DNA of 29,997 nucleotides, from the IMG/VR virus record IMGVR_UViG_3300044580_000244, positions 1-29,997 of that record, one strand, 5' to 3'. Numbering within the stretch: the stretch's first letter is position 1; each line of letters starts with the position of its first letter. A program made the translations under genes and the position numbers. Below, piece after piece: positions 1 to 23,055 of the stretch. This DNA comes from a virus. The notes beneath the pieces were generated by a model. The model had not been told where the DNA came from, made no database searches, and saw only the letters and a program-made list of their open reading frames with translations.

Positions 1-90
1 AATTCTAATTCTAATTCTAATTCTAATTCTAATTCTAATTCTAATTCTAATTCTAATTCTAGTTCTAGTTCTAGTTCTAGTTATAATTAC
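1..90. repeat. Hexanucleotide tandem array: (AATTCT)x10, (AGTTCT)x3, then degenerate units AGTTAT and AATTAC
   Basis: Read directly. 1-60 is ten perfect AATTCT units, 61-78 is three AGTTCT units, and 79-90 decays. The same unit in the same orientation forms the right end of the window. Confidence 0.97.
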
Positions 91-99
91 TCGATTTTA

Positions 100-183
100 G
101 CTTGAGCTTTGGCTCGAGCGTTAGCTTGACCATTGGCTTGGCACTTGGCTTGGCACTTGGCTTGACCGTTAGCTTGAATTTTT
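100..183. repeat. Seven tandem 12-bp iteron-like units (consensus GCTTGrCnnTTr)
   Basis: Units: gcttgagctttg, gctcgagcgtta, gcttgaccattg, gcttggcacttg, gcttggcacttg, gcttgaccgtta, gcttgaattttt. All are head-to-tail with no spacers. Two units are identical. Confidence 0.85.
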
Positions 184-210
184 TTTAAGTTCTTTAAATT
201 CAAATAGTTA

Positions 211-510
211 TAAAAGGCAAAAAAGGGAAAAAGTAGGGAAAAATGGGCAAAAACAGGGTAAAAAAGGGTAAAAAAGGGTATTTTTCGGGTAAAAATGAGG
301 TAAAAACGCCTGGAAAACTTCCAGAAAATTGCGAAAAAAACCAGAAAAAATAGCCAAAAAAAGTGCGAAAAAGTAGGCAAAAAATAGGTAAAAAATAGGC
401 AAAAAATGACCAGAAAATTGATTGAAAAAATGGCAAAAAAACGAGGGAAAAAGTGAGGGAAAATCTGGGAAAAAAGACAGGAAAAAAGGGAAAGTCTGGT
501 AAAGACTAGT
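211..510 (+). repeat. Array of about 25-27 same-strand A-tracts (GGnAAAAA-type units) spaced about 10-13 bp apart; predicted intrinsically curved DNA
   Basis: Example stretch: ggcaaaaaagggaaaaagtagggaaaaatgggcaaaaacagggtaaaaaagggtaaaaaaggg ... gagggaaaaagtgagggaaaatctgggaaaaaagacaggaaaaaaggg. A4-A7 runs all lie on the + strand with a period close to one helical turn. Only F-rich junk ORFs occur on the - strand. Confidence 0.85.
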
Positions 511-520: not shown

Positions 521-624
521 ATTAAAAAAACTTATGTCTGTAACTATTACAGTTTCAAATAGTTAGCGAGATGAGCTAAAAAAAGTTAAAAAAAAGCTTA
601 AAAAAACGCAGATTTTACTTGACA
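521..624 (+). repeat. Copy 1 of a ~104-bp direct repeat (promoter module) ending in AGATTTTACTTGACA
   Basis: Aligns with 758..860. Shared blocks are aaaaaaa-yttrtgtctgtaact, ctaaaaaaa, aaaaaagct(t)aaaaaaa and agattttacttgaca, in the same order and spacing. Confidence 0.8.
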
Positions 625-646: not shown

Positions 647-757
647 TGTTTTTATAGAGTGTGACCCAAAAGTGAAAAAGAAATGAAAGAGAAAGAAAAC
701 CTGATGGCAAAGCAAGAAATTCTGGAAAGAAAGTTCCAGAAGAATATATTGAAAAAA

Positions 758-860
758 GTTAAAAAAATTTTGTCTGTAACTCTTTCATAAATAAAGACTT
801 ACCCGTGTGGACTAAAAAAAACATAAAAAAAGCTAAAAAAATTGAAGATTTTACTTGACA
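758..860 (+). repeat. Copy 2 of the ~104-bp direct repeat (promoter module)
   Basis: See copy 1. The offset between copies is about 236-237 bp. Confidence 0.8.
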
Positions 861-914: not shown

Positions 915-1373
915 ATGATTAACATCGAATTCAAAACCTTGTCAGATCAAGATCTCAGGGAACTTATTTCTTCAGCGAAAGAAGAACTCAAGTCTCGCCA
1001 AGAAGCACAACCCCAGAAGCAAGTTCCAAGAGTGCTTCGTCAGATGTATATGGAAACACTCGGAACCGACAGAGACAGCACCGTAACCCGCTATAACGGC
1101 GGATGGGCGAAAACGGTCAGAGGACTTGATAAGTCTAATACCAATGGTTATTCAATATTGGGGGACTTCGTAGATATCGACGCTCCGCAATATTGGAAAA
1201 ATGGAACTATAATTCTCGATTGCGACATCAACGGTTCAAGAAAGCATCCTAAAAAGACCTATAGACTGTTCAGATATGAGAATGGAAAGCTTTCATTGCT
1301 CGCCCAAGAAGGCGACACGAAAGACTGGGCAGTAAGACTTTGGCCAGCGATTGAAGAAGCGCTGGACATATAA
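915..1373 (+). CDS. Hypothetical early protein (152 aa)
   Basis: ORF with RBS caaAGGAGaccaaaaATG. It is the first gene downstream of P2. I recognise no motif. Confidence 0.8.
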   Translation: MINIEFKTLSDQDLRELISSAKEELKSRQEAQPQKQVPRVLRQMYMETLGTDRDSTVTRYNGGWAKTVRGLDKSNTNGYSILGDFVDIDAPQYWKNGTIILDCDINGSRKHPKKTYRLFRYENGKLSLLAQEGDTKDWAVRLWPAIEEALDI

Positions 1374-1393
1374 AAAACAAAAGGAGATATAAA

Positions 1394-1561
1394 ATGTCGG
1401 AATCAAACAAAAAAATGAGACCCTGCGATGAATGCGGGGAAATGGATTATTTGCAACCTTTCAAGTTTAAGAAAGGCAAAAAGGTATATCACTTATGCAG
1501 GTTATGTATTTGGGATTATAGAATAATTGATGATAATGTCAAGGTAGAAATTGTCGATTGA
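1394..1561 (+). CDS. Small zinc-ribbon protein (55 aa; CDEC...CRLC)
   Basis: Below the ORF-track size cutoff. AAGGAGatataaaATG at 1394 and TGA at 1559-1561. Translation: MSESNKKMRPCDECGEMDYLQPFKFKKGKKVYHLCRLCIWDYRIIDDNVKVEIVD. Confidence 0.65.
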   Translation: MSESNKKMRPCDECGEMDYLQPFKFKKGKKVYHLCRLCIWDYRIIDDNVKVEIVD

Positions 1562-1624
1562 GAATTTGTTTTTCAACGAGATAGAAAAAATAAACCAAAT
1601 TCAAGAAAATAAAGGAGAATAAGA

Positions 1625-2866
1625 ATGAGACAAATTAAAAAAAATGAGAAAAAAAGGATTTTCAAAGTCCTAACAAGTGATATGTATGCCCCCATCCAAT
1701 ACAATATCAGATACAGAATGAATGAAGATTATCATTGCATAGATTTTGACGAAAGCATAGAGAATGTCTGCAGTTACGGCTTTTACGGTTGCACTCTGGA
1801 AAGTTTATACGAGTTTTTTGCCCCCGTCCATCGGGAAAGGCTCTTCATCGCTGAGGTCTGGGGCAGGAATGTCCACTACCCAGGCTTCCAGCGGTGGGAG
1901 AACATTCAGCTCGTGCAAGAGCTGAAAAAACCAGAGATATTAGAACTCTGTAAAGAAATAGAAGAAAAATATGGATATAAGCTTGCGGAAGCCTACTATC
2001 CGAAAAATCCATTGGTTGGCACGCCTAAAAAGCCTACCAAAAAGGATATAGAGCTTCTGAAAAAATGGATTGAAATAGAAGAGGATAATTTCGCAAAAAT
2101 TAAAGATTGCGTGGAGGACTCAATAAGAAATAAATATCCTAATCTCAAACAGCACATCTGGGACGGAATAGGTCAAGATATAATAGAAAAGATAATACTT
2201 GCACTCCGAAATGAGATTGTCTGGGCACCAGAAAAATTGCCCAGAGAATATGCGAAATACTATATTGATAATTCCGTGAAAGATTTCATATATGCGTATC
2301 TGGGTAGCCTGTATCCACGGGTGGAAAATTGGAAAAAAATCCAGCATAAGGAAGGCGAATATCCCTTCCAGCCTGCCGTGGAATTGCTGAATCGTGGTTT
2401 CGTTCCATCTTTCGATGGGGGATGCTGGAGACTACATAGTGGAAAAAGGAGACAGAAATTTTTCGAATATGGAAAAATAGTCTGGACGGAAAAGAAACTG
2501 GAAAAGGACGAGAATGATTGTTTGAGCATTGAAGGCATAGAAAGAGTAACATTTAAACAAATATTTGAGGCATTAACAGGAAAAAAGTTAAAACATTATG
2601 TTTCAACCTGGAACTATTATTATAATTATTCCATAAATGATGAAGAAAACTTTGTAAATTTCCCAGATTGGAAATATAACAATAAAATTTATATAACAGA
2701 AAAAAGAAGACACGAAATAGATAAAATAATTATGGAATATTATGTATTCCACTATAAAGACAAAGTATTCAAATATTATGGGATGTTTGATGAGAGCGAT
2801 CCCAAATACAAGGATAAAATGTATGCTCTAATTAAAAGTATTTGCGAGCAAAATAACATAAAATAA
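1625..2866 (+). CDS. Hypothetical protein (413 aa)
   Basis: Long ORF with RBS AAGGAGaataagaATG, followed by a terminator. The N-terminal segment (FKVLTSDMYAP...VCSYGFYGCTLESL...RLFIAEVWG) resembles a widespread phage domain of unknown function. That is my recollection only. Confidence 0.8.
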   Translation: MRQIKKNEKKRIFKVLTSDMYAPIQYNIRYRMNEDYHCIDFDESIENVCSYGFYGCTLESLYEFFAPVHRERLFIAEVWGRNVHYPGFQRWENIQLVQELKKPEILELCKEIEEKYGYKLAEAYYPKNPLVGTPKKPTKKDIELLKKWIEIEEDNFAKIKDCVEDSIRNKYPNLKQHIWDGIGQDIIEKIILALRNEIVWAPEKLPREYAKYYIDNSVKDFIYAYLGSLYPRVENWKKIQHKEGEYPFQPAVELLNRGFVPSFDGGCWRLHSGKRRQKFFEYGKIVWTEKKLEKDENDCLSIEGIERVTFKQIFEALTGKKLKHYVSTWNYYYNYSINDEENFVNFPDWKYNNKIYITEKRRHEIDKIIMEYYVFHYKDKVFKYYGMFDESDPKYKDKMYALIKSICEQNNIK

Positions 2867-2873
2867 CAAAATA

Positions 2874-2906
2874 AGCCTTCTCTCTTATATAGAGAGGGCT
2901 TTTTAT
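2874..2906 (+). terminator. Rho-independent terminator
   Basis: The sequence agccttctctc-ttatata-gagagggct forms a stem-loop followed by TTTTTATT. It lies 8 nt after the stop codon at 2866. Confidence 0.75.
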
Positions 2907-2931
2907 TATATAACAAAATAAAGAGAAAAAA

Positions 2932-3120
2932 ATGGAAAAAGTAACAGTAAAAACTATGGACGGGAAAGAAATAGTCTTTCCAGTACATACCCTGAAAGAT
3001 GGCAGAAAAATCGAATACAGTTTCAATAGCGAAACTGTAAATCAACTGCTAAAAACCATAGTTTCTGCCGTTCAGGCAGGAAATCAGCTAATAAAAAAGG
3101 AGAAAAAAAATGACAAATGA
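2932..3120 (+). CDS. Hypothetical protein (62 aa)
   Basis: ORF whose end overlaps the next start by 11 nt. The RBS is weak. Confidence 0.55.
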   Translation: MEKVTVKTMDGKEIVFPVHTLKDGRKIEYSFNSETVNQLLKTIVSAVQAGNQLIKKEKKNDK

Positions 3121-3712
3121 ACTAAAACAAGAACTGAGGGAAAATGCACGCTTCTTTCCGAGAAGTGTATGCTTTGAGAAATCATTTCTGGAGAAATTGA
3201 TAGAAAAGTATCCAGAAATCAAGCCAAAACTATATGAGAATTCTATTGTATTCCCTTCTGGTTATGTCTGGATATGGGAAAATCCAGAAGAGATTATCAG
3301 GAAATATGAGGCAATAGAAAACAAAATGTATGACCTCGAGGAAATGCTCACCCAGCTAATGAACCGCCTCAGCTGGAAAGAAGGGCTTTCTGAAAAAGAG
3401 AAAAAAGAAAAATATCCAAGCTATATTCCTGATGTAGAATTCATTCACGGGAAATATATATTCTCTGGAGTGATATGCGTTCCAAAAAAGAATATAGATG
3501 AAATATTGCGAGACTATCCAGAAATTGAAAATGAAATCTATGGGCACGCCTTGATAGAGGAAGAGGGTTATTTATATCCAGAAAAAGTAATCAATAGAAT
3601 TGTAAAAGGAAAAGAAGAAATGGAAGAAAGAATACAAAAGCTGGAGAAATGGATAAATGAAGCAAGATATGAGCTTTCTCAATATGGAAAGGAGGAAGAA
3701 AATGAGCAATAG
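3110..3712 (+). CDS. Hypothetical protein (200 aa) with an internal duplication
   Basis: RBS AAGGAGaaaaaaaATG. The two halves share FLEKLIEKYPEIKPKLYE.. and IDEILRDYPEIENEIYG.., each followed by a helical E/K-rich tail. Confidence 0.8.
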   Translation: MTNELKQELRENARFFPRSVCFEKSFLEKLIEKYPEIKPKLYENSIVFPSGYVWIWENPEEIIRKYEAIENKMYDLEEMLTQLMNRLSWKEGLSEKEKKEKYPSYIPDVEFIHGKYIFSGVICVPKKNIDEILRDYPEIENEIYGHALIEEEGYLYPEKVINRIVKGKEEMEERIQKLEKWINEARYELSQYGKEEENEQ

Positions 3713-3878
3713 AAAGATAGCAATGCTATATACGAAAATAAACGGAGAAGAAAAGATAAGGATATATTCTGGAGAGGGAAAAGTTCACACAATAGAAGGA
3801 AAATCTATTTCAGAATTTGCAAAAAAGAATGGAAAAGCTTCAATAGAGGAGTTGGAGGTGCAAATTGAAGCTAAATAA
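3702..3878 (+). CDS. Hypothetical protein (58 aa)
   Basis: I prefer the internal ATG at 3702 (AAGGAGGaagaaaATG) over the track start at 3657. Confidence 0.6.
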   Translation: MSNRKIAMLYTKINGEEKIRIYSGEGKVHTIEGKSISEFAKKNGKASIEELEVQIEAK

Positions 3879-3940
3879 AATAGTCAGAAATATCAATGAC
3901 TATGATAAAAATTGAAGAATAAACACAAAAAGAGGCAAAT

Positions 3941-4678
3941 ATGGCAAAGAATAGCGATGGCAGTAGCTTTTACTACTTCGAGCATAGAGCTGGAAGTAGG
4001 AACGACCTGAAAATCCTGAAATTAGATGAAATCCTGGGAGAAAACAACGGCTATGCTCTCTTTTTCAAGAGCCTGGAAGTGATGCTGGAATTGGAGAAAC
4101 CCTTCCTGAGATATGATAGCAATCTCATTGCGAGAGCGATGGCTATCACGCTGAAGGAATATCACCAGTTCCTGGATGCGTGCATATCCGTAGGTCTCTT
4201 TCAGGTGGATTGCGATGGCAATATCTTCTCGCCTTCGTTCCTGAAATGGCTTTCGAAAAAACAGAGCCTCGCAGAAAGAGGAAGCAAAGGCGGAAAAGCA
4301 TCGCAAGCGAAATTGCATCCTGAACCTGAAAAAGAACCAGAACCAGAAAAACAGAAACAAGCAAAAGTTCAGGAAAGCATAGCAGAGATAGTGGCTTTCT
4401 GGAATGAAAATGCGAAAAAGTGCAGGTGCGTCAAGATTACGAGTGAAATCCAGAAAGCAATTCAGAAAAGGCTGAAAGAGTTTTCAGTAGAGGAAATAAA
4501 GCAAGCAATCAGAAACTATCAGCTAGTGATACAAAATCCAAAATCTTTCTTCAAGTATACCTGGAATCTTCAGGAATTTCTCACCCGAGCCAATGCACTT
4601 CCAGTCTTCTATGGCGAAACCGAGCAGATACTGGAAAAATACGGCTGTGGCAAATCCAGCGAGCCACCAGTGTTTTAG
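3941..4678 (+). CDS. Replication initiation / replisome-organiser protein (DUF4373-like N-terminal domain plus phage conserved C-terminal domain)
   Basis: The N-terminus FYYFEHRAGSRNDLKILKL..LGENNGYALFFKSLEVM matches the Lin1244/DUF4373 pattern. A PEPEKEPEPEK linker follows. The C-terminus FWNENAKK...EEIKQAIRNY matches the pattern seen in phage DnaD-like Rep proteins. The gene lies directly upstream of a DnaC-like loader. Confidence 0.7.
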   Translation: MAKNSDGSSFYYFEHRAGSRNDLKILKLDEILGENNGYALFFKSLEVMLELEKPFLRYDSNLIARAMAITLKEYHQFLDACISVGLFQVDCDGNIFSPSFLKWLSKKQSLAERGSKGGKASQAKLHPEPEKEPEPEKQKQAKVQESIAEIVAFWNENAKKCRCVKITSEIQKAIQKRLKEFSVEEIKQAIRNYQLVIQNPKSFFKYTWNLQEFLTRANALPVFYGETEQILEKYGCGKSSEPPVF

Positions 4679-4688
4679 GAGCGAAAAT

Positions 4689-5243
4689 ATGAACTATCCA
4701 GATTATTATGTCCGAAATGAAAAGCTCTGCACGATGATGGAGACCGCCATAGAAAAGAAAGAGCCTATACTATGGCTCTTCACGGGTGCACCAGGAACGG
4801 GAAAGACACTTTCCGCAGAGATTATGTTTGAGGCTCTGTGCCAAGAGATAGAGCATTTACAGGGGCAAGTAGAGAAATTAACTGCTAACGAGCTCTACTA
4901 TAAGTATCAAAATTTCGCCAGAAGCAAAGATTATGAGGAGAGAAGTCAGACAAAATGGTGCATCAAAACACTATGTAATAAAATAGTGCTATTGGACGAT
5001 TTAGGCAATGAACCGAGAACTGAAGCGAGTTACGCTTTTATGCAGAATTTATTTTCCGTGCAATATAATTGGCTCAGAGAAGGAAATAGAAACTATGTCA
5101 TAATCACGACCAATCTCAATAGCAACGAAATCACGGACATATATGGAGAGCGTGTCATTGACCGCATATACGAATACTACACTATTGTGAAATTCACGGG
5201 AACCAGCTTCCGAAAAAAGAAAATGAAAATAGTAGAGGTATGA
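4689..5243 (+). CDS. DnaC/IstB-like AAA+ ATPase (helicase loader)
   Basis: Start at 4689 (AGGAGcgaaaatATG). Walker A is GAPGTGKT and Walker B is VLLDDLG. Confidence 0.8.
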   Translation: MNYPDYYVRNEKLCTMMETAIEKKEPILWLFTGAPGTGKTLSAEIMFEALCQEIEHLQGQVEKLTANELYYKYQNFARSKDYEERSQTKWCIKTLCNKIVLLDDLGNEPRTEASYAFMQNLFSVQYNWLREGNRNYVIITTNLNSNEITDIYGERVIDRIYEYYTIVKFTGTSFRKKKMKIVEV

Positions 5244-5663
5244 ATGAAAATAAAATTGGAATTCGATATCAAGCCAATGGCAAAGCAAAGCTTTCGCACC
5301 ACACGCTCAGGACAGAAGTATCTCGACCCAAGCGTCATAAAATACAGAAAGGCAATTCGCAATATGGCAATCGCTCAGATGCGAAACCAGAAAGCTGAGA
5401 AGATAGAGGGAGCGGTCAATATGAATATTGTATATGCCTTCAAAAGACCGCAAAGCTTGAGTAAGAAAGAAAGAAACGAAATAGACGGCGGAAAAACCGT
5501 GCCTAAAACAACTAAACCTGATATAGACAATCTCACAAAAGCAATACTGGATGCACTGAACGGGATTGTCTGGAAAGACGACGCACAAGTAACGCAAATA
5601 AAAATTCAGAAAGTATGGTCTTCAAAAGACCAGATAGAGGTAGAAATATGGGAAACCAAATAA
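5244..5663 (+). CDS. rusA: RusA-family Holliday junction resolvase
   Basis: KPDIDNLTKAILDALNGIVWKDDAQV is the classic RusA catalytic core. Size is 139 aa. Confidence 0.9.
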   Translation: MKIKLEFDIKPMAKQSFRTTRSGQKYLDPSVIKYRKAIRNMAIAQMRNQKAEKIEGAVNMNIVYAFKRPQSLSKKERNEIDGGKTVPKTTKPDIDNLTKAILDALNGIVWKDDAQVTQIKIQKVWSSKDQIEVEIWETK

Positions 5664-5717
5664 ACAAAATAAAACAAAAATATCAGACTGGGAGACAGTC
5701 TGGAAAAGGAGAAAGAA

Positions 5718-6098
5718 ATGAAAAGTCTCAATGACTATGCAAGCACTCACATTGACCAGCCTGGTCAGTATGTAGTAACAGTATCAGAGTGCAAGAATGA
5801 CTACACTCGTAGTGGAAAGGAATGCGTTTTCGTGAAATTCGAGACCGCAGAAAACCAAACAATCGTAAGTTCCTATGTAGAGGCTACCTACTGGAAGCTC
5901 TACAAGCTTGCCGTTGCCGCAGGACTCACGAAAGAGGAAAGAGACAGGTTCTTCGATGAACCTGAGCTTCTGATAGGGAAACAGGTCATTATCGATGTGA
6001 CCATCAACAATGCAGGATATCTCGGCGTGAACGACGCCTATCCTGTCAGAAAAGAAAAGAACAGACTGGCATCAGACTTCACTGATGTGCCGTTCTAA
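5718..6098 (+). CDS. Hypothetical protein, possibly a DUF669-like ssDNA-binding accessory of the recombinase
   Basis: RBS AAGGAGaaagaaATG. The call rests on position directly upstream of recT and on size (126 aa). The sequence assignment is tentative. Confidence 0.45.
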   Translation: MKSLNDYASTHIDQPGQYVVTVSECKNDYTRSGKECVFVKFETAENQTIVSSYVEATYWKLYKLAVAAGLTKEERDRFFDEPELLIGKQVIIDVTINNAGYLGVNDAYPVRKEKNRLASDFTDVPF

Positions 6099-6109
6099 AA
6101 GGAGGAAAA

Positions 6110-7339
6110 ATGAATGATTTAGTTGTATTGCAAAACATAGCCAAGGAATTGGTTGGCTCGAAATTGCATCAGCACCGCAACCCAGCGGATGTGCTATTCG
6201 TTATATTCGCAGGTGAGTCTCTCGGTCTCAATCCCGCAACAGCCCTAATGAATATATATAATGTCAATGGGATGCCTGCAATGAAAGCAGACCTGAAGCT
6301 TGCACTGGCAAAAAAGCATCCCGAATATGCAGGATGCACCATAAAATCAGATGCAAACCAGTGCACGGTAGAAATGAAGCGAAAGCTTCCTTCTGGCGAA
6401 ATAGAAACCATAGTGTCCACTTTCACAATGCAAGACGCAGCAAGAGCTGGATTGCTGAAAAAAGACAATTGGCAGAAATACCCAGCTCGTATGCTGAAAG
6501 CTCGTGCAGTGAGCTATGCAGTTAATGACCTCTTTCCCGATGTCTTCTTCGGACTGCTTTCGAAAGAAGAAGCTGAAGAAATAGACGCACCGAAAGCAAC
6601 AGTGAAAGCGAAAGAGAAGGAAATACCAGAGCAGAAATTCTCAAGAGTAGTGGAATATTACTATCCCGAGGATATAGTATATGAAGTTATCAGTGATACT
6701 GAAAATGAGCCTGCACCCGAACCTGCACCCGAACCAGAACCTGAGCCTATATCTGAGCCAGAACCAGAAACAATAGAAACGCCACCAATTGGGGAAAATG
6801 AGATGGAAAATCTCCGCCAAGCGACCATTGCTATTATGAAAAGACTTGCTGAAGAGAAAATCGATGGCTACGAAAGTGAGGAAAGACGCAAGAGAAGTGT
6901 CCGTGAGCATCTTGGCATCGACTACATACGGGATGCAAAAGATTACGATAGTCTCATTCAGTATCACGACTATCTGGCGAAAAAACTTCAGAAAGTCAAG
7001 CAAAAGAGCTTGCAACAGCGAAAAACTGAATTGCTTCTTGAATTGGGAAAATTCGAACCTACAGAAGAAGTAAAGGAATGGTCAAATAGAGTCATATCCG
7101 CAACACGGCATAACACGCTGGACGAGGCGGAAAAATGGCTGAAAGAACATCAGGGAGATAATTTAGAAGAGCGAAAACAAAAACTTCTAAATGAAATAGA
7201 GAAATATGATATCACAGATGCACACGAGAAGGCAATACACATAGCGAAAATAGAAAACGCACTTCGGCATAATCAATTGGATGAAGAAGAATATTGGATA
7301 AAGTCACAAAAACGAAAAACTTCACAAGAAGGAGAATAA
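6110..7339 (+). CDS. recT: RecT-family single-strand annealing recombinase with a long C-terminal extension
   Basis: The N-terminal ~170 aa (LGLNPATALMNIYNVNGMPAMKADL...MQDAARAGLL..NWQKYPARMLKARAVSYAVNDLFPDV) are RecT-like. A PAPEPAPEPEPEPISEPEPE linker follows, then a ~190-aa helical tail. Confidence 0.85.
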   Translation: MNDLVVLQNIAKELVGSKLHQHRNPADVLFVIFAGESLGLNPATALMNIYNVNGMPAMKADLKLALAKKHPEYAGCTIKSDANQCTVEMKRKLPSGEIETIVSTFTMQDAARAGLLKKDNWQKYPARMLKARAVSYAVNDLFPDVFFGLLSKEEAEEIDAPKATVKAKEKEIPEQKFSRVVEYYYPEDIVYEVISDTENEPAPEPAPEPEPEPISEPEPETIETPPIGENEMENLRQATIAIMKRLAEEKIDGYESEERRKRSVREHLGIDYIRDAKDYDSLIQYHDYLAKKLQKVKQKSLQQRKTELLLELGKFEPTEEVKEWSNRVISATRHNTLDEAEKWLKEHQGDNLEERKQKLLNEIEKYDITDAHEKAIHIAKIENALRHNQLDEEEYWIKSQKRKTSQEGE

Positions 7340-7340
7340 A

Positions 7341-7505
7341 ATGATAACATTCATAAATATACTAATGGCGATAGAAGTAATAATGGTCTGGGTCATATTC
7401 ATTGCTATACTCGGACTTATATTGCTATGTATTTGGAAATTAGCAAAAATCGTGTTAAAATGGGTTAAGAATAAAAAAAATGGAGGAAATAATGAAACTA
7501 ACTAA
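7341..7505 (+). CDS. Small single-pass membrane protein (54 aa)
   Basis: Not in the ORF track. GGAGaataaaATG at 7341. Translation: MITFINILMAIEVIMVWVIFIAILGLILLCIWKLAKIVLKWVKNKKNGGNNETN. It has a hydrophobic core and a basic tail. Confidence 0.55.
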   Translation: MITFINILMAIEVIMVWVIFIAILGLILLCIWKLAKIVLKWVKNKKNGGNNETN

Positions 7506-7719
7506 ACAACAAAGTGCAGAAGCATTAGCAGCATTGCAGGCTTCAGGAAAAACATTGAAGTATATTGCGAGAAAATACGACCTTTCCTATAGCCTATTGC
7601 GTTTCTGGTTGCACGGGAAAACTCCCGCAGATAAGAATAATCTCTACCTTTCTTTCGCTGCAGCACTGAAGAATGAAATAGGCTGGGATATTGAAAGCGA
7701 AAACAATGAGAGTGAATAG
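7492..7719 (+). CDS. Small helix-turn-helix DNA-binding protein (75 aa)
   Basis: I prefer ATG 7492 (GGAGGaaataATG). The segment SGKTLKYIARKYDLSYSLLRFWLHGK looks like an HTH. Confidence 0.6.
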   Translation: MKLTKQQSAEALAALQASGKTLKYIARKYDLSYSLLRFWLHGKTPADKNNLYLSFAAALKNEIGWDIESENNESE

Positions 7720-7728
7720 GAGGGAAAG

Positions 7729-8028
7729 ATGACTATAGCAGGAATAATCATTCTGCTACTCAGTCTCGGTCTCAATATCATTCTCTTTTGTGGCGTCCTG
7801 AAAATCAGTGACAGGCTTCAGGACGCCTGTTTTCGAAACCAGGAAGACCGAAAGAACTGGAAAGAACAGTCGGAAAGATACGAAGCGATGCTGAAAAATA
7901 TGATATTTCGCTGTCAGAGATGTAAGCGGTTCGTGGCACGGAAAGATATCAGAACCACCAAAGATGGCGATTTACTTTGTCCTGTTTGTTATAAAAAACA
8001 TATAAAAGTAATGAAAAAGGAGGTATAA
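7729..8028 (+). CDS. Membrane-anchored zinc-ribbon protein (99 aa)
   Basis: RBS AGGAGGgaaagATG. N-terminal TM segment IAGIIILLLSLGLNIILFCGVL. C-terminal CQRC...CPVC motifs. Confidence 0.75.
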   Translation: MTIAGIIILLLSLGLNIILFCGVLKISDRLQDACFRNQEDRKNWKEQSERYEAMLKNMIFRCQRCKRFVARKDIRTTKDGDLLCPVCYKKHIKVMKKEV

Positions 8029-8093
8029 TGTCAAGTTTTTATTGTCCGCATTGTAAAGAACCTGTAGAAAATGTTAAAATTATACAAAGATAA
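8028..8093 (+). CDS. Possible 21-aa CxxC micro-ORF (MSSFYCPHCKEPVENVKIIQR)
   Basis: It has the same GGAGGTATAATG ribosome-binding cassette as the neighbouring genes (8105, 8587). Its ATG overlaps the preceding TAA stop. It is very short. Confidence 0.3.
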   Translation: MSSFYCPHCKEPVENVKIIQR

Positions 8094-8116
8094 ATACATA
8101 AGATAGGAGGTATAAA

Positions 8117-8587
8117 ATGCCTGGAGTATGGAAAGAAATTGACGATGCAGGAAGGAGTGGCTACTGCTGGTATTGCCACGAGTGGAAATCTTCTTCTCGT
8201 GTCTTTCAGATATGGGAAGGAGTAGGAATAGACGAACGAGATGAGTATGAGGATGGTATATGTCCCGAATGTGGAGAGAAATTAGATGAGGATTATCACT
8301 GCAGAGTATGCGGTGAGAGCGATGGTCTTCTGGAGTATACTCCATATGGGGAAAATATGCCAAGACTATACTGTCCCTGGTGCCTGGTGGAAACCGCTTA
8401 TGCTGATTTCCTGAAAAAACTGGAACCCATATTGATGCATGGAGATGTTGACCCGATATGTAAAAATTTTCAGGATGTAGAAGATTATGTAAAAGAAGTT
8501 ATTTTGGAAATTTATAGTAAAGATTTTCAAGATTATGAAGAAAATACAGGGGAAATTGTAATATATCCCCCTGACGATTATCATTGA
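8117..8587 (+). CDS. Multi-zinc-ribbon protein (156 aa)
   Basis: RBS AGGAGGtataaaATG. Four CxxC pairs are present: CWYC, CPEC, CRVC, CPWC. Confidence 0.8.
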   Translation: MPGVWKEIDDAGRSGYCWYCHEWKSSSRVFQIWEGVGIDERDEYEDGICPECGEKLDEDYHCRVCGESDGLLEYTPYGENMPRLYCPWCLVETAYADFLKKLEPILMHGDVDPICKNFQDVEDYVKEVILEIYSKDFQDYEENTGEIVIYPPDDYH

Positions 8588-8599
8588 AGGAGGTATAAA

Positions 8600-8854
8600 A
8601 TGAAAGAAATTAATTACGAAAAAAGATTAGACGCATTAGAGGAATTAGAAACATTATACAAATTTAGAAAAGAAGCAATATTTAAAGATAAATATATTGA
8701 AACATTCTATTTCATAAGAAAAGAAGAAATTCAATATGATACTCATTCTAAAATTATGAACATAATTGGTAAAGAATTAAATTTTAGTAATGATACCATT
8801 AATGAATTTAAAGATATGGGATATACAATTTTAGAAACAATAGTTATAATTTAA
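8600..8854 (+). CDS. Hypothetical protein (84 aa), in the AT-rich island
   Basis: RBS AGGAGGtataaaATG. Local GC is clearly lower than in the flanks. Confidence 0.7.
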   Translation: MKEINYEKRLDALEELETLYKFRKEAIFKDKYIETFYFIRKEEIQYDTHSKIMNIIGKELNFSNDTINEFKDMGYTILETIVII

Positions 8855-8868
8855 AAAGGAGGATTAAA

Positions 8869-9180
8869 ATGTTTAATAAAATTTATCAAGAAGAAACAAA
8901 TATCTATGGTCAATTAGATACTGTATATAACTTCTATTATGACTTAACTGCAGAAGAGTTATTGGAAGTCAAAGATAGAGGTAAATCTGATATAATGGGT
9001 GAATATCTGGAAAGAACTAAAGAAATATCCTTTTACCTAACAATAACAAAAGAACCGATAGTAGAGAGAGTAGAATTTCTTAGCGCTCCTTTAGATTATT
9101 TCTTGGACGATAATATTTACTTACCAGAAAATATTAAGGAAGCTTTAATAGAAATAAGAAAATACATTGAAGGAGAATGA
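8869..9180 (+). CDS. Hypothetical protein (103 aa), in the AT-rich island
   Basis: RBS AAGGAGGattaaaATG. Confidence 0.7.
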   Translation: MFNKIYQEETNIYGQLDTVYNFYYDLTAEELLEVKDRGKSDIMGEYLERTKEISFYLTITKEPIVERVEFLSAPLDYFLDDNIYLPENIKEALIEIRKYIEGE

Positions 9181-9181
9181 A

Positions 9182-9655
9182 ATGGACATATTAGATGTGG
9201 CAAGAGATACCATTATGAACACAAAGAGAATAAATAAGAAACATTATGTTTTATTTGATAGTAAAATTAGTATATATGTGGAAATTGTAGACGAGACCAA
9301 CATTAACATAGAAATAAAATTATATAATGAAGACACGGAATATTCCGTCTACAAAAAAAGTTTAAGCGGACTTGACATTACAAAAGAATTAAAAGAACTG
9401 ATATTAAAATATAAAGATTTCCCCGAGTTAATAGAAGATGTTAAGGTTATGATAAATAACGAATTGATAGACCGAAATATAGAGGAAATAAAATTTTCAA
9501 TGGATTCTTCGGATAATCATTTTTACCTTTTCTGTTATGTTGATAAGAACTTTATGCCATATTTATCATTACAATTGAAGACGATGCTAAGTATGAATTA
9601 TATTGCGACGCTGTATACTATCCCAGTGATTGCGCACATCCTGCAGAATATATAG
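9182..9655 (+). CDS. Hypothetical protein (157 aa), in the AT-rich island; the 3' end is questionable
   Basis: I prefer ATG 9182 (AGGAGaatgaaATG). The last ~35 codons overlap an alternative open frame that looks more protein-like (see findings). Confidence 0.6.
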   Translation: MDILDVARDTIMNTKRINKKHYVLFDSKISIYVEIVDETNINIEIKLYNEDTEYSVYKKSLSGLDITKELKELILKYKDFPELIEDVKVMINNELIDRNIEEIKFSMDSSDNHFYLFCYVDKNFMPYLSLQLKTMLSMNYIATLYTIPVIAHILQNI

Positions 9656-9684
9656 GACCACTATGTCCTGTATGCGGTGAAGAT

Positions 9685-10152
9685 ATGGGAGAATATACCT
9701 GTGATATCTGCGGAAAGCACGGAATGCCAGTAGATGAAGTATTGGCGGAAGATGGAGAATATCTTATCTGCCACGAGTGCAAAGCGAAAATGATATTCCT
9801 GAGCGGGAAACCAATTGAAGAAATCAAGAAAGAAATATACGATGTGCTGGTGGAAAAATTCGAATTCAAGCCTGATATATTCACTGAAGGCTATATTGAA
9901 GACCTATTAGAAGAATTTCAGAATAAACTGAAGGAGCTGAAACGTCTCAAACTAATGGAAAAACCGTCAGTTCCGCTCAGTGAAATCAGAAAGCACAACC
10001 CCTATGTTCAGTATATAGGGGACCAGTATTCGCATCGGATAGAATATCACGGCATTGAATTCGTTCAGACATTCGAAAAGACTGAGAAAGGCTATATATA
10101 TGAGAGCAGAAGACCGTTTGAAATTGTTCAAGTAGAATTTTATAATGATTGA
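9685..10152 (+). CDS. Zinc-ribbon protein (155 aa from the first ATG); the frame is open and coding-like for 46 codons upstream
   Basis: The sequence from the ATG reads MGEYTCDICGKHG...ICHEC. The upstream in-frame stretch reads ..YCDAVYYPSDCAHPAEYIGPLCPVCGED. It parallels ICPECGEKLDEDYHCRVCGE in the 8117 gene. Confidence 0.7.
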   Translation: MGEYTCDICGKHGMPVDEVLAEDGEYLICHECKAKMIFLSGKPIEEIKKEIYDVLVEKFEFKPDIFTEGYIEDLLEEFQNKLKELKRLKLMEKPSVPLSEIRKHNPYVQYIGDQYSHRIEYHGIEFVQTFEKTEKGYIYESRRPFEIVQVEFYND

Positions 10153-10329: not shown

Positions 10330-10360
10330 GGCAAGGCTCATATCGGTCTTGCCTTTTTTT
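10330..10360 (+). terminator. Rho-independent terminator at the convergence point of the two arms
   Basis: GGCAAG-gctcatatcggt-CTTGCC followed by TTTTTTT. The T-run overlaps the stop codon of the minus-strand endolysin gene. Confidence 0.75.
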
Positions 10361-10751
10361 ATGCTTTCACTTCCAGCAATCTTTTCACATTCCTAACATC
10401 CAGATGCACCCAAGAAACGCCTGTTTCTATGCAGGTGATTTCAGGAAACAGTCCAGAGCGTATATCATTTCGCACCTTCTCCGCTGAGACGCCCTGCACA
10501 TCCAGGTCTACTGCACGCCCATAGCAATGTTGCGAGAATTTCGCACCGACGCCTGAATTGAAAGGTCTCAGACCACGGAGACTGAACTTTCCGCCCCAAT
10601 ACCAGTCATTGATTATGATTGGACGATTGTAATATTCTCGCATTTCATCTATAGTTTTCAGAATTCTTTCGTCTATGAGCCAGAGCCAATATTGTTTATA
10701 ATCTTTTGACGGAACTAATTCAAACCAGCTAAAATGTTTTGGTGTATACAT
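10359..10751 (-). CDS. Endolysin, peptidase M15 family (zinc D-Ala-D-Ala / L-Ala-D-Glu peptidase fold)
   Basis: SQHCYGRAVDLD and WVHLDV match the H-x6-D ... H zinc-ligand arrangement of Peptidase_M15. RBS GGAGGcgtaaATG. It is a single domain of 130 aa. Confidence 0.85.
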   Translation of the reverse strand: MYTPKHFSWFELVPSKDYKQYWLWLIDERILKTIDEMREYYNRPIIINDWYWGGKFSLRGLRPFNSGVGAKFSQHCYGRAVDLDVQGVSAEKVRNDIRSGLFPEITCIETGVSWVHLDVRNVKRLLEVKA

Positions 10752-10815
10752 TTACGCCTCCTCTTTGTCTATGTCTATTCCGAGCAAAAGCATTAGCACG
10801 AAATGTTTCCATGTG

Positions 10816-10983
10816 TTAGTTATCATCTTCCACCTCCACTATTTCTAAGTGGTTATTCTCTATGTATTGCAACATCTCTGCTTCGGTGTCAAACCATAAC
10901 AACTCATAGCGAGTGCCTACTGTATTCGGCTCCGCTGTTCCTGTGTGTAATACTTGATTGCCATTTTTGATTATATAGTGCAT
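10816..10983 (-). CDS. Hypothetical protein (55 aa)
   Basis: I prefer ATG 10983 (AGGAGaataatATG), which lies just after the stop of the upstream gene. The track start at 11031 would overlap that gene by 47 nt. Confidence 0.6.
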   Translation of the reverse strand: MHYIIKNGNQVLHTGTAEPNTVGTRYELLWFDTEAEMLQYIENNHLEIVEVEDDN

Positions 10984-10984
10984 A

Positions 10985-11998
10985 TTATTCTCCTGTGTAT
11001 TCATTCCAATCTGCTGGCCAGCTCCCACCATTAGCAGATAGCCATGCAGAGGGGATAATTGTCCAAGCTGCTTTGGTGAGTAGTGGAGCTACATCTGCTT
11101 TCACCTCATCCCAATCAGGGCAGTTTTCAGTTGTGCCTGCGGTAATTATGAATGGATATGCTCCGCTCCACGTTCCAGTTGCCGCATCGTGAATTAACCG
11201 TGCATATTCTGCTGCCGTTGCAAATACCGTGCTGCCCAAGAGTTGGACGCCAAGTGAACCCGTAATATTCAGCGGATTTGTTCCATATGTCAGAGACGAG
11301 CCGATGTTGAAGAGGTACAGGTATGTTAGCTTCATCCCAGTTATGTCACCAGTGATGACAGATGAAGAGCCGAGGTCGTTGAGGGACAGGGCTGTCAGCT
11401 TCATCCCAGTTATGTCGCCAGTGATTATAGATGAGCCGATGTTGTATAAGGCCAGGTATGTCAGCTTCATCCCCGTTATGTCACCAGTGATGGCAGATGA
11501 GCCGAGGCTGGAAAGGAGCAGGTATGTTAGCTTCATCCCCGTTATGTCACCAGTGATTATAGATGAGCCGAGACTGAAGAGGCGCAGGTATGTCAGCTCC
11601 ATCCCCGTTATGTCGCCCGTGATGACAGATGAGCCGATGCTGGAGATGTATAGGTATGTCACCAGCTTGCGTTTAGGGATGGTAAAGCTTCCAGCATTCT
11701 TGAAATAAATGTCTTGATTCGTGTTTGCCGCAAGGGTTAGCGGAGTGGTAACGAAATCTCCGCTACTGCCTATTCTAATGCTTGTACCGCCAGCAGGGGT
11801 TACAGTTGTTGCTTCCGATACTCGAACACGCACGTATTTTGTGCCATCGCCAGCGGTGACTGTGAAGACGGCGGGCATATTGCCGTATCTATCCACAATG
11901 CAATGCGCTCCGAGACCGAGACCGAGACCAAGTCCGAAGCTCACTTCTTCAGTCCTTTTATGATAGGTTTTACTATCTGATAGGTTTTGCTGACCCAA
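10985..11998 (-). CDS. Tandem-repeat (21-aa LRR-like solenoid) protein, probably a tail-associated or host-interaction protein
   Basis: Six consecutive repeats of L(T)YLxLxxxGSSxITGDITGMK. The start is uncertain. The track start 11998 is TTG. GTG 11944 overlaps the upstream TGA (GTGA coupling). ATG 11878 is also possible. Confidence 0.75.
   Translation of the reverse strand: MGQQNLSDSKTYHKRTEEVSFGLGLGLGLGAHCIVDRYGNMPAVFTVTAGDGTKYVRVRVSEATTVTPAGGTSIRIGSSGDFVTTPLTLAANTNQDIYFKNAGSFTIPKRKLVTYLYISSIGSSVITGDITGMELTYLRLFSLGSSIITGDITGMKLTYLLLSSLGSSAITGDITGMKLTYLALYNIGSSIITGDITGMKLTALSLNDLGSSSVITGDITGMKLTYLYLFNIGSSLTYGTNPLNITGSLGVQLLGSTVFATAAEYARLIHDAATGTWSGAYPFIITAGTTENCPDWDEVKADVAPLLTKAAWTIIPSAWLSANGGSWPADWNEYTGE
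11285..11665 (-). repeat. About six tandem 63-bp coding repeats inside the LRR-like gene
   Basis: The + strand shows a recurring block agcttcatcccNgttatgtcRccNgtgatNNcagatgagccga... every 63 bp. Confidence 0.9.
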
Positions 11999-12336
11999 TC
12001 AGCTATTTGAAACGCATCTTTCAATTTCGCTTGTTTCAGCAGTATTGGCTCTCTTTCTTGCAGTGCTTGCACTACTACACTGTTTTTTAGTTCATTCTGT
12101 GAAAGTTCTTTCACATCAATATTGTCATTCTGCACCAGTGAATGCATCAGTTCCAGTGGATTTTTCTCTGCTTGTGTTATGAGTGGCATTGCGGATTTCA
12201 TTAGCTCTTTGTCCGCCAGCATTTGTCTGATTTTTTTATACTCGGAAAAGATAACGCCAATCAGAACGCCAATAGATGTTAGTATCGCTATCACGAGCTC
12301 AATATTTTCTTGGATTTTGAGTAGTATTGTTTCCAT
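11941..12336 (-). CDS. N-terminally membrane-anchored helical protein (131 aa); lysis or tail accessory candidate
   Basis: RBS AGGAGGataaaATG. TM segment LVIAILTSIGVLIGVIF near the N-terminus. The remainder is predicted helical. Confidence 0.7.
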   Translation of the reverse strand: METILLKIQENIELVIAILTSIGVLIGVIFSEYKKIRQMLADKELMKSAMPLITQAEKNPLELMHSLVQNDNIDVKELSQNELKNSVVVQALQEREPILLKQAKLKDAFQIADWVSKTYQIVKPIIKGLKK

Positions 12337-12337
12337 T

Positions 12338-12772
12338 TTATCCTCCTATGGATTTTATTATTATGTATGTTATGGCACTGCCAGAAATCATTGACGCAAC
12401 GAGCTTTATGAATTCTATCCATTTCGAAAGATTGTCTCTGCTTTCCTTCACGAAAGCTGAGAAATGAGCTCTGAGCGTGTCTTTGCATTGCTCTGTATTG
12501 AGTGCAGAATCCACGACTTCATTGCATCGTTTGCGAAAATCCTGATTGTTCAGCAATAATATTGCACTATTGACCATTTCATCTTTTTTGCAATATCTCG
12601 CATCATTTTCTATTATATTATTCTTTGATGTTAATTCCAAGCGATGCGAAAGGTTGTCTATAGCCGTATTCAGAGCATTTATGCTCTTTTTAATTTCTGC
12701 TATATCGCTTCGAATATTCGTGGAGAATTCCTTGAATTCTTTGCTGATATTTTGGCTTTCCATATTAACCAT
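12338..12772 (-). CDS. Coiled-coil protein with a C-terminal membrane anchor (144 aa)
   Basis: The C-terminal KLVASMISGSAITYIIIKSIGG is hydrophobic. The N-terminus has a heptad-like pattern. The alternative start at 12763 cannot be excluded. Confidence 0.65.
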   Translation of the reverse strand: MVNMESQNISKEFKEFSTNIRSDIAEIKKSINALNTAIDNLSHRLELTSKNNIIENDARYCKKDEMVNSAILLLNNQDFRKRCNEVVDSALNTEQCKDTLRAHFSAFVKESRDNLSKWIEFIKLVASMISGSAITYIIIKSIGG

Positions 12773-13070
12773 TGTGAACTGTTATTTGCAATTTCGCACC
12801 CAAAACCGCAATTTTGTGTCCTGGACGAATGACATAGTATAGTATCTGCCCGCCAGGTATCGCCATTGAAGATGCAGTCGCAGTTGGGTTTTCTGATACC
12901 TGAATATTGCAGTCATTACTGGCCAATAATTGAACTATGGTGAAGTCCGTAGTGGATATCACACCAGAAGATGCGGATGCAGTGCTTCCGTCCACTATTA
13001 TAGGGTCATTTCCGAGCACGAAAAGCGGAAGGCTTTGTGCGTTTTGGTCTTTGATTAGCGTCCTTGACAT
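12765..13070 (-). CDS. Hypothetical virion or fibre-associated protein (101 aa)
   Basis: RBS AGGAGtataaaATG. S/T/A-rich, beta-type composition. It lies directly after the fibre gene. Confidence 0.65.
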   Translation of the reverse strand: MSRTLIKDQNAQSLPLFVLGNDPIIVDGSTASASSGVISTTDFTIVQLLASNDCNIQVSENPTATASSMAIPGGQILYYVIRPGHKIAVLGAKLQITVHNG

Positions 13071-13071
13071 T

Positions 13072-13767: not shown

Positions 13768-13775
13768 TTATTCCT

Positions 13776-14291
13776 CTAATTTATAATTATTATCTGATTT
13801 CCTTCATAATCAACAATATTATCATCATTATAATCTACTACATTGTATATTTGAATCCCGCTGAAGAAATTCGGGATTTCAGTATATTTCTGCGTAGATT
13901 GAAATGTCAGCTCTATAGTCTGTCCGACTTCACAGTTTGCAAGGTCTTGGGGATCGAAGTCAGAGATCAGCTTGCACGGTATCATTATTCCTGCTTCATT
14001 TTCGAAATCATAGCGTGGATATACACTAATTGGCGTATCATTAGCATCGCTCTCGTTCAGCACGGATACCAGATTGGCGAATTCAATCGCCATATCCGTG
14101 TCCAGATTATGCAGAAAAACTGTGATAATTGGTTGATAGCCTATGAACCTGCTTCGCTCTATATTGTCTCTGGTTGTCCATTTCTGCATCTTTCGCTGAA
14201 AAGTGATTTTGCCTGTGGCGTCAGGGAATTTCGCTCTTTCAGAAGCACATTCCAGCATCACACCACCGAAACCGAAAAGCGTAGATGGCAT
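13776..14291 (-). CDS. Tail-tip or baseplate component (171 aa)
   Basis: Its start overlaps the upstream stop (TGATG). The call rests on operon position between the tail-tip gene and the fibre gene. The antisense ORF 13761..14297 is rejected. Confidence 0.6.
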   Translation of the reverse strand: MPSTLFGFGGVMLECASERAKFPDATGKITFQRKMQKWTTRDNIERSRFIGYQPIITVFLHNLDTDMAIEFANLVSVLNESDANDTPISVYPRYDFENEAGIMIPCKLISDFDPQDLANCEVGQTIELTFQSTQKYTEIPNFFSGIQIYNVVDYNDDNIVDYEGNQIIIIN

Positions 14292-18737: not shown

Positions 18738-18748
18738 ATTTATCTCCT

Positions 18749-19984: not shown

Positions 19985-19987
19985 ATT

Positions 19988-21599: not shown

Positions 21600-21616
21600 A
21601 ATCTCACCTCAAAGTA

Positions 21617-23051: not shown

Positions 23052-23055
23052 TTAT

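Follow-up and report, generated by a model that had tools for sequence, protein, structure and literature searches.

An array of 25 A-tracts, all on the + strand, occupies 276 bp of the noncoding region that separates the divergent arms of a tailed phage genome, with a period of 11.0 bp, not 10.5 bp. The layout of its sequence, the statistical significance of that layout, its pattern of conservation and its constant position are established; its curvature, the handedness of that curvature and its dependence on twist are model-based. The array may tentatively be considered as an intrinsically curved, shape-encoded architectural element of a divergent early-promoter or origin-like control region, and this reading is preferred here with slightly less than even confidence. 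Such an element would act via DNA shape, not via base-specific protein contact, and would be accessory, not essential, in the phage group.

The window, i.e., the whole stretch of DNA analysed, is an entire metagenomic contig of 29,997 bp from a 30-kb, siphovirus-like tailed phage. The phage is uncultured and of sludge or digester origin, the source metagenomes being activated sludge and related wastewater or digester-type samples. CRISPR arrays with the 37-nt repeat GTCTCAATCCCCTCAAACGGGTCAATTCAATTCTTAC hold spacers against it. The two contig ends are contiguous, since the sequence of a relative with 96% identity (L009) reads straight across the microsatellite junction. The early/replication arm (915-10152, + strand) starts with the first early gene (915-1373, + strand) and encodes a replisome-organizer-like protein, a DnaC-like loader, RusA and RecT. 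The leftward arm (10359-29723, minus strand) carries the lysis, tail, capsid, portal and large and small terminase genes, together with a radical-SAM gene (Pfam match), a ParB-N-like protein, a small basic ORF and a putative methyltransferase (named by eye from its sequence, without Pfam family). Among the proteins encoded near the array are the replisome-organizer-like protein (3941-4678) and the ParB-N-like protein (28827-29354), several small ORFs having no family. A tRNA search of the window found none.

The array lies within the ~1.2-kb noncoding region between the two arms. Promoter-like sites are found at 29723 and 29480 (leftward) and at 619 and 855 (rightward), and each promoter in the control region is accompanied by 2-3 phased A-tracts of its own. 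The ~900-bp interval 29724-618 has no consensus promoter directed into it. Both GC and AT skew change sign at the control region; the AT skew is +0.26 across the early arm, which is A- and G-skewed throughout. The features of the region are the following:

1-88, + strand: (AATTCT)n/(AGTTCT)n microsatellite at the left end of the contig, which joins up with 29927-29997; its duplex is the least stable in the region.
97-177, + strand: direct repeat of 12 bp, TTRGCTYGnnnn, iteron-like and present in 6.5 copies immediately upstream of the array.
176-215, no strand: AT-rich junction between the 12-bp repeats and the array, with T8 at 179-186; one of the places in the control region where 40-mers have the lowest duplex stability.
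199-210 and again 554-565: 12-bp direct repeat TTCAAATAGTTA, the first copy within the AT-rich junction.
212-487, + strand: core array of 25 A4-A7 tracts, period ~11.0 bp, G-rich spacers, purine fraction 0.79.
281-285, + strand: single T5 tract, in register; a T5 or T6 occurs in 8 of the 12 tabulated arrays.
311-325, no strand: palindrome CTGGAA-aac-TTCCAG inside the array; its minus strand (325-309) gives a weak terminator-like hairpin score.
488-530, + strand: degenerate tail of the array, with A3 runs, then A4 at 518-521 and A7 at 524-530.
578-646, + strand: early promoter module P1, with three phased A7-A8 tracts (578-606), -35 TTGACA (619-624) and a -10-like element (641-646).
814-882, + strand: early promoter module P2, with three phased A7-A8 tracts (814-841), TTGACA (855-860) and TATTAT (877-882).
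29696-29723, minus strand: leftward promoter-like site TTGACA-16-TATTTT, left bound of the promoter-free interval.
29815-29897, + strand: left A-rich segment with 7 irregular runs of at least four A; holds the hairpin GGCAAAAAAAGCCGTTTTTGCC, terminator-like on the minus strand (29891-29868).
29927-29997, + strand: the same (AATTCT)n microsatellite at the right contig end; the junction is read across by L009.

The runs of at least four A in the array are distributed as 5 A4, 7 A5, 10 A6 and 3 A7. Addition of the runs at 518-521 and 524-530 gives 27, i.e., the ~25-27 A4-A7 runs on the + strand counted in the initial annotation. The extent given there (211-510) must be corrected: the array is real, but it ends at 487 and only a degenerate tail continues to ~530. 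The 3' ends of the tracts are separated by 8-13 bp, with a mean of 10.96 bp. GG[G/C/T] directly precedes 15 of the 25 tracts, and G is found at -3 in 18 and at -2 in 17 of them. The T5 tract is the sole run of at least four T inside the array. It fills one 20-21-bp gap where a tract is missing, so that the lattice is kept and the strand pattern broken. A palindrome related to the one at 311-325 lies at 720-741.

The Fourier analysis of AA periodicity that had been proposed as a check gives a peak at 11.0 bp with a power of 9.3, ~12 sd above shuffled sequences (500 dinucleotide-preserving shuffles; maxima with mean 1.7, sd 0.6 and largest value 4.2). The six strongest 300-bp periodicity windows genome-wide all overlap the array. 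The A-run density is 25 per 276 bp vs. a genome mean of 2.8 (~nine-fold), and the best window beyond the control region reaches 12. The segment across the microsatellite, first described as a shorter mirror of the array, is not a mirror: its 7 A-runs lie on the same + strand with irregular spacing. Irregular spacing and identical strand polarity also rule it out as a second array. Within it, only 29865-29891 exceeds the genome 99th percentile of predicted curvature.

Curvature was modelled with the dinucleotide wedge parameters of Bolshoy 1991 and separately with a plain AA-wedge; the handedness convention was checked on a test helix and on synthetic 10-bp and 11-bp repeats. In both wedge models the array is predicted to be the most curved stretch of the genome (end-to-end/contour ratio 0.40-0.56 vs. 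a median of 0.91), and the strong intrinsic curvature first proposed from the letters is thus supported. Local predicted curvature is above the genomic 99th percentile at 228-399 and 424-479, with a maximum of 75 degrees vs. 47.7 degrees for that percentile. The models give a static bend of ~18-25 degrees per tract and more than 360 degrees in total. Three of the features expected of phased A-tract curvature are found, i.e., tracts in phase on one strand, near-helical spacing and curvature predicted above background. As the period of 11.0 bp is longer than the helical repeat of the model (10.46 bp), successive bends would rotate by ~+20 degrees per unit, which leads to a right-handed superhelix. 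In other words, a period exceeding 10.5 bp by 0.5 bp predicts a superhelix rather than a planar arc. On relaxed DNA (10.4-10.5 bp/turn) the modelled path is open, with ~1.25 turns and a dihedral of ~+20 degrees per repeat. When twist is multiplied by 0.95 (5-6% less, ~11.1 bp/turn), the dihedral falls to ~0, the predicted path becomes planar and the segment closes on itself (end-to-end/contour ratio 0.08-0.13). It must be noticed that a plectoneme takes up only some of its linking deficit as twist, and 11.1 bp/turn is possibly unreached in vivo.

Relatives were found with the first early protein (915-1373) as anchor, in a set that includes activated-sludge assemblies; most contigs break in repeats. 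At least 11 related metagenomic loci have arrays (L009, L022, L024/L027/L150, L025, L028, L144, L152, L156, L157, L162/L163 and L165). The 12 arrays measured, representing at least 8 distinct variants, contain 21-28 tracts with FFT periods of 10.90-11.20 bp and purine fractions of 0.76-0.79, and are predicted to be planar at 11.0-11.25 bp/turn. Wherever the flanks are present the order is fixed: (TTCTAR)n microsatellite, 12-bp repeats, T-run, array, early promoter(s). The A-tracts of the relatives lie on the early-sense strand. The 12-bp repeats always accompany the array; they keep the 8-bp core TTRGCTYG (with a variant TTTGCT... in L025/L156) in 6.5 to ~13.5 head-to-tail copies, the latter number in L009. 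Those repeats (97-177 in the window) do share a conserved recognition-type unit, unlike the A-tract array, whose units share the A-run only and whose spacers are heterogeneous even within one array.

Tract and spacer positions were compared between the window and three relatives. The identities are 97% for tracts and 87% for spacers with L022 (Fisher p 0.005), 94% and 82% with L028 (p 0.005), and 80% and 45% with L025 (p 3e-9), values that must be read with the caution that alignment of divergent arrays favours A-runs and that the strand has a general A bias. The larger array indels in relatives are of 9, 10 or 32 nt, i.e., near whole units. In L025/L027/L156/L157 the 3' half of the array consists of TGACG(C)AAAAA units that replace TAGGCAAAAAA, the register being kept in the alignment; TGACGC thus stands for TAGGC while tracts and register are intact. 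From these identities, whole-unit indels and spacer replacement it is argued that the tracts and the period are probably under constraint and that the spacer sequence is free. Because the tract columns are more conserved and the spacers are replaced, a shape-based element is favoured over a GGnAAAAA recognition array.

The array is an accessory cassette, since some close relatives are without it and have a polypurine tract there. Array-less close relatives are L029/L031 (87% identity of the adjacent early protein) and L016-L019 (80%), and no compensating long curved stretch was found in them. In L031/L139 a ~200-bp polypurine (AGAAAG-like), uncurved tract takes the place of the array, together with ~six weakly phased A4-A5 tracts by the promoter. 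What the two types of cassette have in common is not curvature but an asymmetry of purines between the strands that extends over 250-300 bp. Among relatives anchored by TerL (L011-L015, 53-63% identity) the same divergent layout is found with no array; one more distant TerL relative, L012, carries iterons of another kind in the corresponding intergenic region. The viral loci anchored by ParB (L004-L008) were set aside as unrelated phages, with another context and no array.

Neither the first 6 kb nor 90-660 has any DNA match in GenBank phages or PLSDB plasmids, and the portal protein likewise gave none. TerL is only ~30% identical to that of Jersey-, Dhillonvirus- and Kagunavirus-like siphoviruses, and the DnaC-like loader is ~27-32% identical to that of Firmicutes and other phages. 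On these comparisons no annotated phage or plasmid appears to be a close relative. To look for the host, species-representative genomes were searched with a TerL profile; all that matched were small MAG contigs scattered over many phyla, which probably represent binned phage sequence.

Among 2.9 million viral contigs, only 53 stretches hold six A5 tracts in exact 11-bp register, and the longest chain among them (25) is that of this phage family. Most of the other pattern matches are near-perfect young minisatellites, many in giant-virus bins. In 34 viral contigs the early-promoter motif A6-N4-AGATTT-N2-CTTGACA is present, and their upstream chains comprise only 1-6 tracts. Curvature-type periodicity is reported to be generally absent from phages, unlike bacterial chromosomes (Abel & Mrazek 2012, PMC3431218). 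The array was thus rightly described as exceptional for a phage.

According to the preferred reading, i.e., a curved architectural element, the array would be part of a composite repeat cassette (microsatellite, 12-bp iteron-like repeats and A-tract array) that fills the ~900 bp devoid of promoters between the leftward promoter and the divergently oriented early ones. With transcription leaving this interval in both directions, negative supercoils would, as expected from the literature, build up in it. The tips of plectonemes are pinned by intrinsic curvature, in many cases immediately upstream of a promoter (PMC6301789), and a periodicity of 11 bp has been taken to reflect the pitch of DNA under negative supercoiling (PMC4132750); bacterial and phage promoters can have phased A-tracts upstream of them (PMC9825172). 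Once underwound, the array would hold a plectoneme or loop at its apex and fix the three-dimensional arrangement of the control region. With an apex near 350, the iteron-like repeats (97-177) would stand opposite the palindrome/operator and UP-tract region of P1 (~520-606), and a complex at one side of the apex could contact the other side. Early transcription and/or the assembly of an initiation complex would then become sensitive to template topology.

Several observations weigh against a curved element: (i) the array-less close relatives lack compensating curvature, and purine asymmetry is what the polypurine tract of L031/L139 shares with the array; (ii) the phase between array and promoter-proximal tracts differs among relatives; (iii) the more distant relatives anchored by TerL are without an array; (iv) the higher conservation at A positions could stem in part from mutation biased towards A or, in divergent pairs, from alignment bias. 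As regards the second point, no constant helical phase was found among relatives, the offsets ranging from ~+40 to 180 degrees (a noisy extrapolation). A classical UP element is rejected (a UP-element-like enhancer was among the roles first suggested): such an element is expected at ~-40 to -60, while 132 bp separate the end of the array from the P1 -35 farther downstream (487 vs. 619) and its phase to the promoter-proximal tracts is not conserved. The array as a whole lies ~130-410 bp upstream of the nearest -35, and only the separate tracts 578-606 and 814-841 are placed as UP elements.

The most serious rival, although unlikely, is that the array forms the curved arm of a replication origin or of another large nucleoprotein complex: a phage protein would bind the iterons, the array would wrap, and the AT-rich junction and microsatellite would serve as the unwinding element. 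Lambda ori and the iteron plasmids are the classical cases of iterons with curved DNA next to them. The constant company of 12-bp repeats with a kept 8-bp core is consistent with an origin, as are the position of the least stable duplex (microsatellite and 176-215) next to the iterons, the sign change of GC and AT skew, and the different iterons of L012 at the equivalent site. The phage moreover encodes a replisome-organizer-like protein and a DnaC-like loader, and no origin is evident inside their genes. However, the skew change coincides with the change of transcription direction too, the array (~275 bp) is far longer than known origin bends, and relatives with the same early genes are without the whole cassette. 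The array itself was rejected as a DNA unwinding element: its mean nearest-neighbour energy is -1.25 kcal/mol per step vs. a genome median of -1.31, and the least stable 40-mers of the region are the microsatellite and 176-215, not the array.

A bolder proposal, judged rather unlikely, is that the array works as a topological device in its own right, without any protein, and is tuned to underwound DNA, either as a supercoil sensor or pin, or as a pre-formed right-handed wrap that recruits gyrase like the strong gyrase site of Mu, and that it times early transcription and replication. With its conserved 11.05-bp period it would form an open right-handed superhelix on relaxed, freshly injected DNA and a closed planar loop once the DNA is negatively supercoiled. 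If this were true, the polypurine (H-DNA-prone) tract of the sister phages and the array would be interchangeable "DNA-structure cassettes" in phage control regions.

Next comes the neutral explanation, held to be quite improbable, in which the array is a purine-rich minisatellite under no selection, its 11-bp unit amplified by slippage on an A/G-biased strand and its curvature a by-product. TRF does see a 10-12-bp tandem structure, the indels are whole units, the neighbouring repeats vary in copy number, the early arm is A- and G-skewed throughout, and the array-less relatives are viable with another purine-rich low-complexity tract in the same place. A young slippage minisatellite is nevertheless rejected, TRF giving only fragments with 64-80% matches. 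Since the units are heterogeneous to this degree and the arrays are largely collinear among relatives, array turnover is slow. Moreover, the tracts stay intact while the spacers diverge 3-4 times faster, and a period of 10.9-11.2 bp with 21-28 tracts is held across at least 8 variants. The other viral pattern matches are mostly near-perfect young repeats, and the array is not.

It is likewise improbable, and decidedly so, that a protein which recognises the shape of DNA wraps or docks on the array, be it gyrase with its right-handed wrap (a strong gyrase site), a nucleoid-associated protein with a preference for curved AT-rich DNA, or a genome-organizing phage protein like phi29 p6. The predicted right-handed superhelical path, the narrow minor groove that the A-tracts would present every 11 bp on one face, and spacers free to vary are in favour of such a reader. 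The phi29 p6 protein recognises a bendability pattern, not a sequence, and wraps DNA right-handed (PMC10899789); A-tracts have been considered as places where wrapping proteins, gyrase among them, bind through arginine (PMC9825172). On the contrary, no candidate protein was found: a search of 20 predicted phage proteins (early-arm and terminase-proximal) against Pfam and PHROGs gave no nucleoid-protein-like, ribbon-helix-helix or p6-like match. The 48-aa basic ORF left of the cassette was discarded as array binder because it occurs in array-less relatives as well. In addition, stiff A-tracts resist further wrapping, and negative, not positive, supercoils are expected between divergent promoters.

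A sequence-specific GGnAAAAA recognition array, also raised in the initial annotation, is very improbable, whether iteron- or centromere-like (ParR-parC, TubR-tubC) or a pac site for the terminase small subunit. The parC iterons of plasmid R1 are 11-bp, and SPP1-type pac sites contain bent DNA. Direct repeats at 11-bp spacing, the enrichment of G at -3 and -2 and a ParB-N-like gene 700 bp away fit such a site. However, GG[GCT] is found in only 15 of 25 units, the spacers are variable, and those of the TGACG(C)AAAAA half-array in L025/L027/L156/L157 are unrelated. No ParM-, ParA- or TubZ-like gene was found among those searched. The ParB-N-like protein is short and adjoins the putative methyltransferase and the radical-SAM gene, thus this neighbourhood looks like a DNA-modification module rather than a partition one. 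The gene of the terminase small subunit lies ~2.7 kb off, with three genes between.

Expression of the array as a purine-rich noncoding RNA or reading frame is hardly credible: minus-strand ORFs of 78-102 aa overlap it and its strand asymmetry could reflect a transcript, but these ORFs are Phe/Pro/Leu low-complexity peptides from TTG starts whose frame is broken by the 10-nt and 32-nt indels of relatives, no left-side promoter-like site points into the array, its RNA fold is no better than shuffles (z = +1.0), and the one Rfam match, at chance level, lies outside it.

Phages have been reported without curvature-type periodicity (PMC3431218), yet this family keeps one of the longest natural phased A-tract arrays among 2.9 million viral contigs. 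If a role through shape and supercoiling is true, the array would offer a natural test case (i) for bacterial 11-bp periodicity as a code for the geometry of underwound DNA and (ii) for the positioning of plectonemes at promoters by curvature. It is possibly also a ready-made part for topology-sensitive promoters or origins. If the array is neutral, it would show that strand-biased slippage can yield an extreme DNA structure without function.

By its structure the array belongs with hyperperiodic bent A-tract DNA, and its nearest functional counterparts are promoter upstream A-tracts and the curved DNA of iteron origins. Like the bent region of trypanosomatid kinetoplast minicircles and the hyperperiodic introns of C. 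elegans (PMC7229863), it has many one-strand A4-A6 tracts at about one helical turn and, as far as the models predict, long-range static curvature from the DNA itself. Those examples are eukaryotic or organellar with a period of ~10-10.5 bp, whereas the array is part of the control region of a phage, repeats every 11.05 bp and forms a cassette with iteron-like repeats. Phased A-tracts upstream of promoters are a second class. Promoters of B. subtilis and SP82 are cases of it. As in sigma-70/sigma-A promoters (PMC9825172), the array presents non-template-strand A-tracts with helical spacing upstream of TTGACA-type promoters. The promoter-proximal tracts (578-606 and 814-841) fit this phased or UP-like class. 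The known promoter cases have 2-5 tracts within ~40-150 bp of the start, whereas the array has 25 tracts at 130-410 bp upstream of the -35.

The array is comparable to plectoneme-pinning sequences in that these show curvature over at least 70 bp upstream of transcription starts, which is proposed to fix the geometry of supercoils (Kim et al. 2018, PMC6301789). Their genomic examples are short and modest, while the array, as a candidate pin, is ~four times the tip size with a predicted bend of more than 360 degrees. The phi29 p6 regions are likewise phage noncoding DNA with periodic bendability and a right-handed superhelix, and the p6 complex acts both when replication starts and in the control of early promoters (PMC10899789). 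The p6 sites differ by their 12/24-bp periodicity, their location at linear-genome ends and their size (~20-60 bp), and no p6-like protein was found among the 20 phage proteins searched. In lambda ori and iteron plasmids, direct repeats adjoin bent AT-rich DNA between divergent functions, as they do here. The A-tracts of lambda lie inside its four 19-bp iterons, whereas the array is a separate, far longer curved module and its origin activity is putative. The strong gyrase site of Mu (~150 bp, at the genome centre, with a defined cleavage core) organises supercoiling. It resembles the array as a phage cis-element whose flanking arms have helically periodic bendability for a right-handed wrap, and no cleavage motif was identified in the array. 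The array differs from its structural and functional counterparts in the number of tracts (25), the 11.05-bp period, the distance to the promoters and the fact that the array is a module of a swappable phage repeat cassette.

The control region, i.e., the noncoding interval between the divergent arms, contains several repeated elements in addition to the phased A-tract array.

Window 1-88 and 29927-29997, L009:5005-5094: hexanucleotide microsatellite, closing the contig
Window 97-177: 12-bp repeat TTRGCTYGnnnn, head-to-tail, with a conserved core of 8 bp and 4 variable bp
Window 199-210 and 554-565: exact 12-bp direct repeat TTCAAATAGTTA, flanking the array and its tail
Window 29868-29891: hairpin GGCAAAAAAAGCCGTTTTTGCC, T-run on the minus strand
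Window 29898-29925: polypyrimidine (CTTT-like) tract, following the hairpin
L031:1000-1210 and L139:7955-8152: polypurine tract, AGAAAG-like and about 200 bp long, in sister phages devoid of the array

The A-tract array is always accompanied by the 12-bp repeat, which is present in 6.5 copies in the window, about 13.5 in L009 (a 96%-identical relative reading through the contig-end junction) and 7-12 in other relatives. TTRGCTYG is replaced by TTTGCT(T/A)(G/C) in L025/L156. This repeat looks like a true iteron or a centromere-type binding array. The microsatellite unit is AATTCT in the window, changing to AGTTCT near 61-84, and AGTTCT in relatives; the microsatellite duplex has the lowest stability within the control region, and most related contigs have their breakpoint inside it. 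In L009, the repeat and the polypyrimidine tract are separated by about 100 bp of additional unique sequence which is absent from the window, thus the assembly of the window may have collapsed at this point.

The polypurine tract of the two sister phages (purine fraction up to 0.89 on the early-sense strand) occupies the site of the microsatellite, 12-bp repeat and A-tract cassette. It appears to be an alternative to this cassette and is potentially triplex-forming.

Possible transcription-related features are found in and around the array and along the early arm.

Window 311-325: palindrome CTGGAA-aac-TTCCAG, within the array
Window 537-551: palindrome CTGTAA-cta-TTACAG, upstream of early promoter module P1
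Window 684-791: putative 35-aa ORF MKEKENLMAKQEILERKFQKNILKKVKKILSVTLS, leader between promoter modules P1 and P2
Window 720-741: palindrome TTCTGGAA-agaaag-TTCCAGAA, between P1 and P2
Window 1515-1542, minus strand: perfect consensus promoter TTGACA-16-TATAAT, inside a 55-aa early ORF

The three palindromes are possible operators; the first and the third also score as weak terminators on the minus strand. The hairpin at 29868-29891 is terminator-like for leftward transcripts exiting the repeat region. The minus-strand promoter faces the array, back across the early genes, and is not conserved in L144/L145. The 35-aa ORF is a possible one, with a weak Shine-Dalgarno sequence.

Two metagenomic contigs carry a CRISPR array fused to phage sequence (L148:6-500 and L180:104-1419). 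The 37-nt repeat GTCTCAATCCCCTCAAACGGGTCAATTCAATTCTTAC occurs 7 times in the former and 18 times in the latter. In both, the phage/CRISPR junction lies exactly at the edge of a repeat copy; these contigs are therefore probably chimeric assemblies mediated by spacers. Window 6065-6100 is matched by one spacer (35/36), window 793-826, upstream of P2, by a second (32/34), and the related phage contigs L124/L140 by further spacers of GTCTCAATCCCCTCAAACGGGTCAATTCAATTCTTAC arrays. Such spacers against the phage provide a direct lead to its host.

Two other regions of the window deserve mention.

Window 11294-11661: 66-nt tandem repeat, 5.5 copies of about 80% identity, inside a 337-aa ORF (10985-11998)
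Window 27514-29354, minus strand: block of three genes separating the terminase small-subunit gene from the control region

The 66-nt repeat codes for recurring GSSxITGDITGMKLTYL units, and the 337-aa ORF is probably a tail fibre or receptor-binding protein. Of the three minus-strand genes, one encodes a radical-SAM protein (Pfam, 3e-13) and another a ParB-N-like protein, and the remaining 191-aa ORF is methyltransferase-like by eye (no Pfam match); the trio looks more like a DNA-modification module than a partition system.
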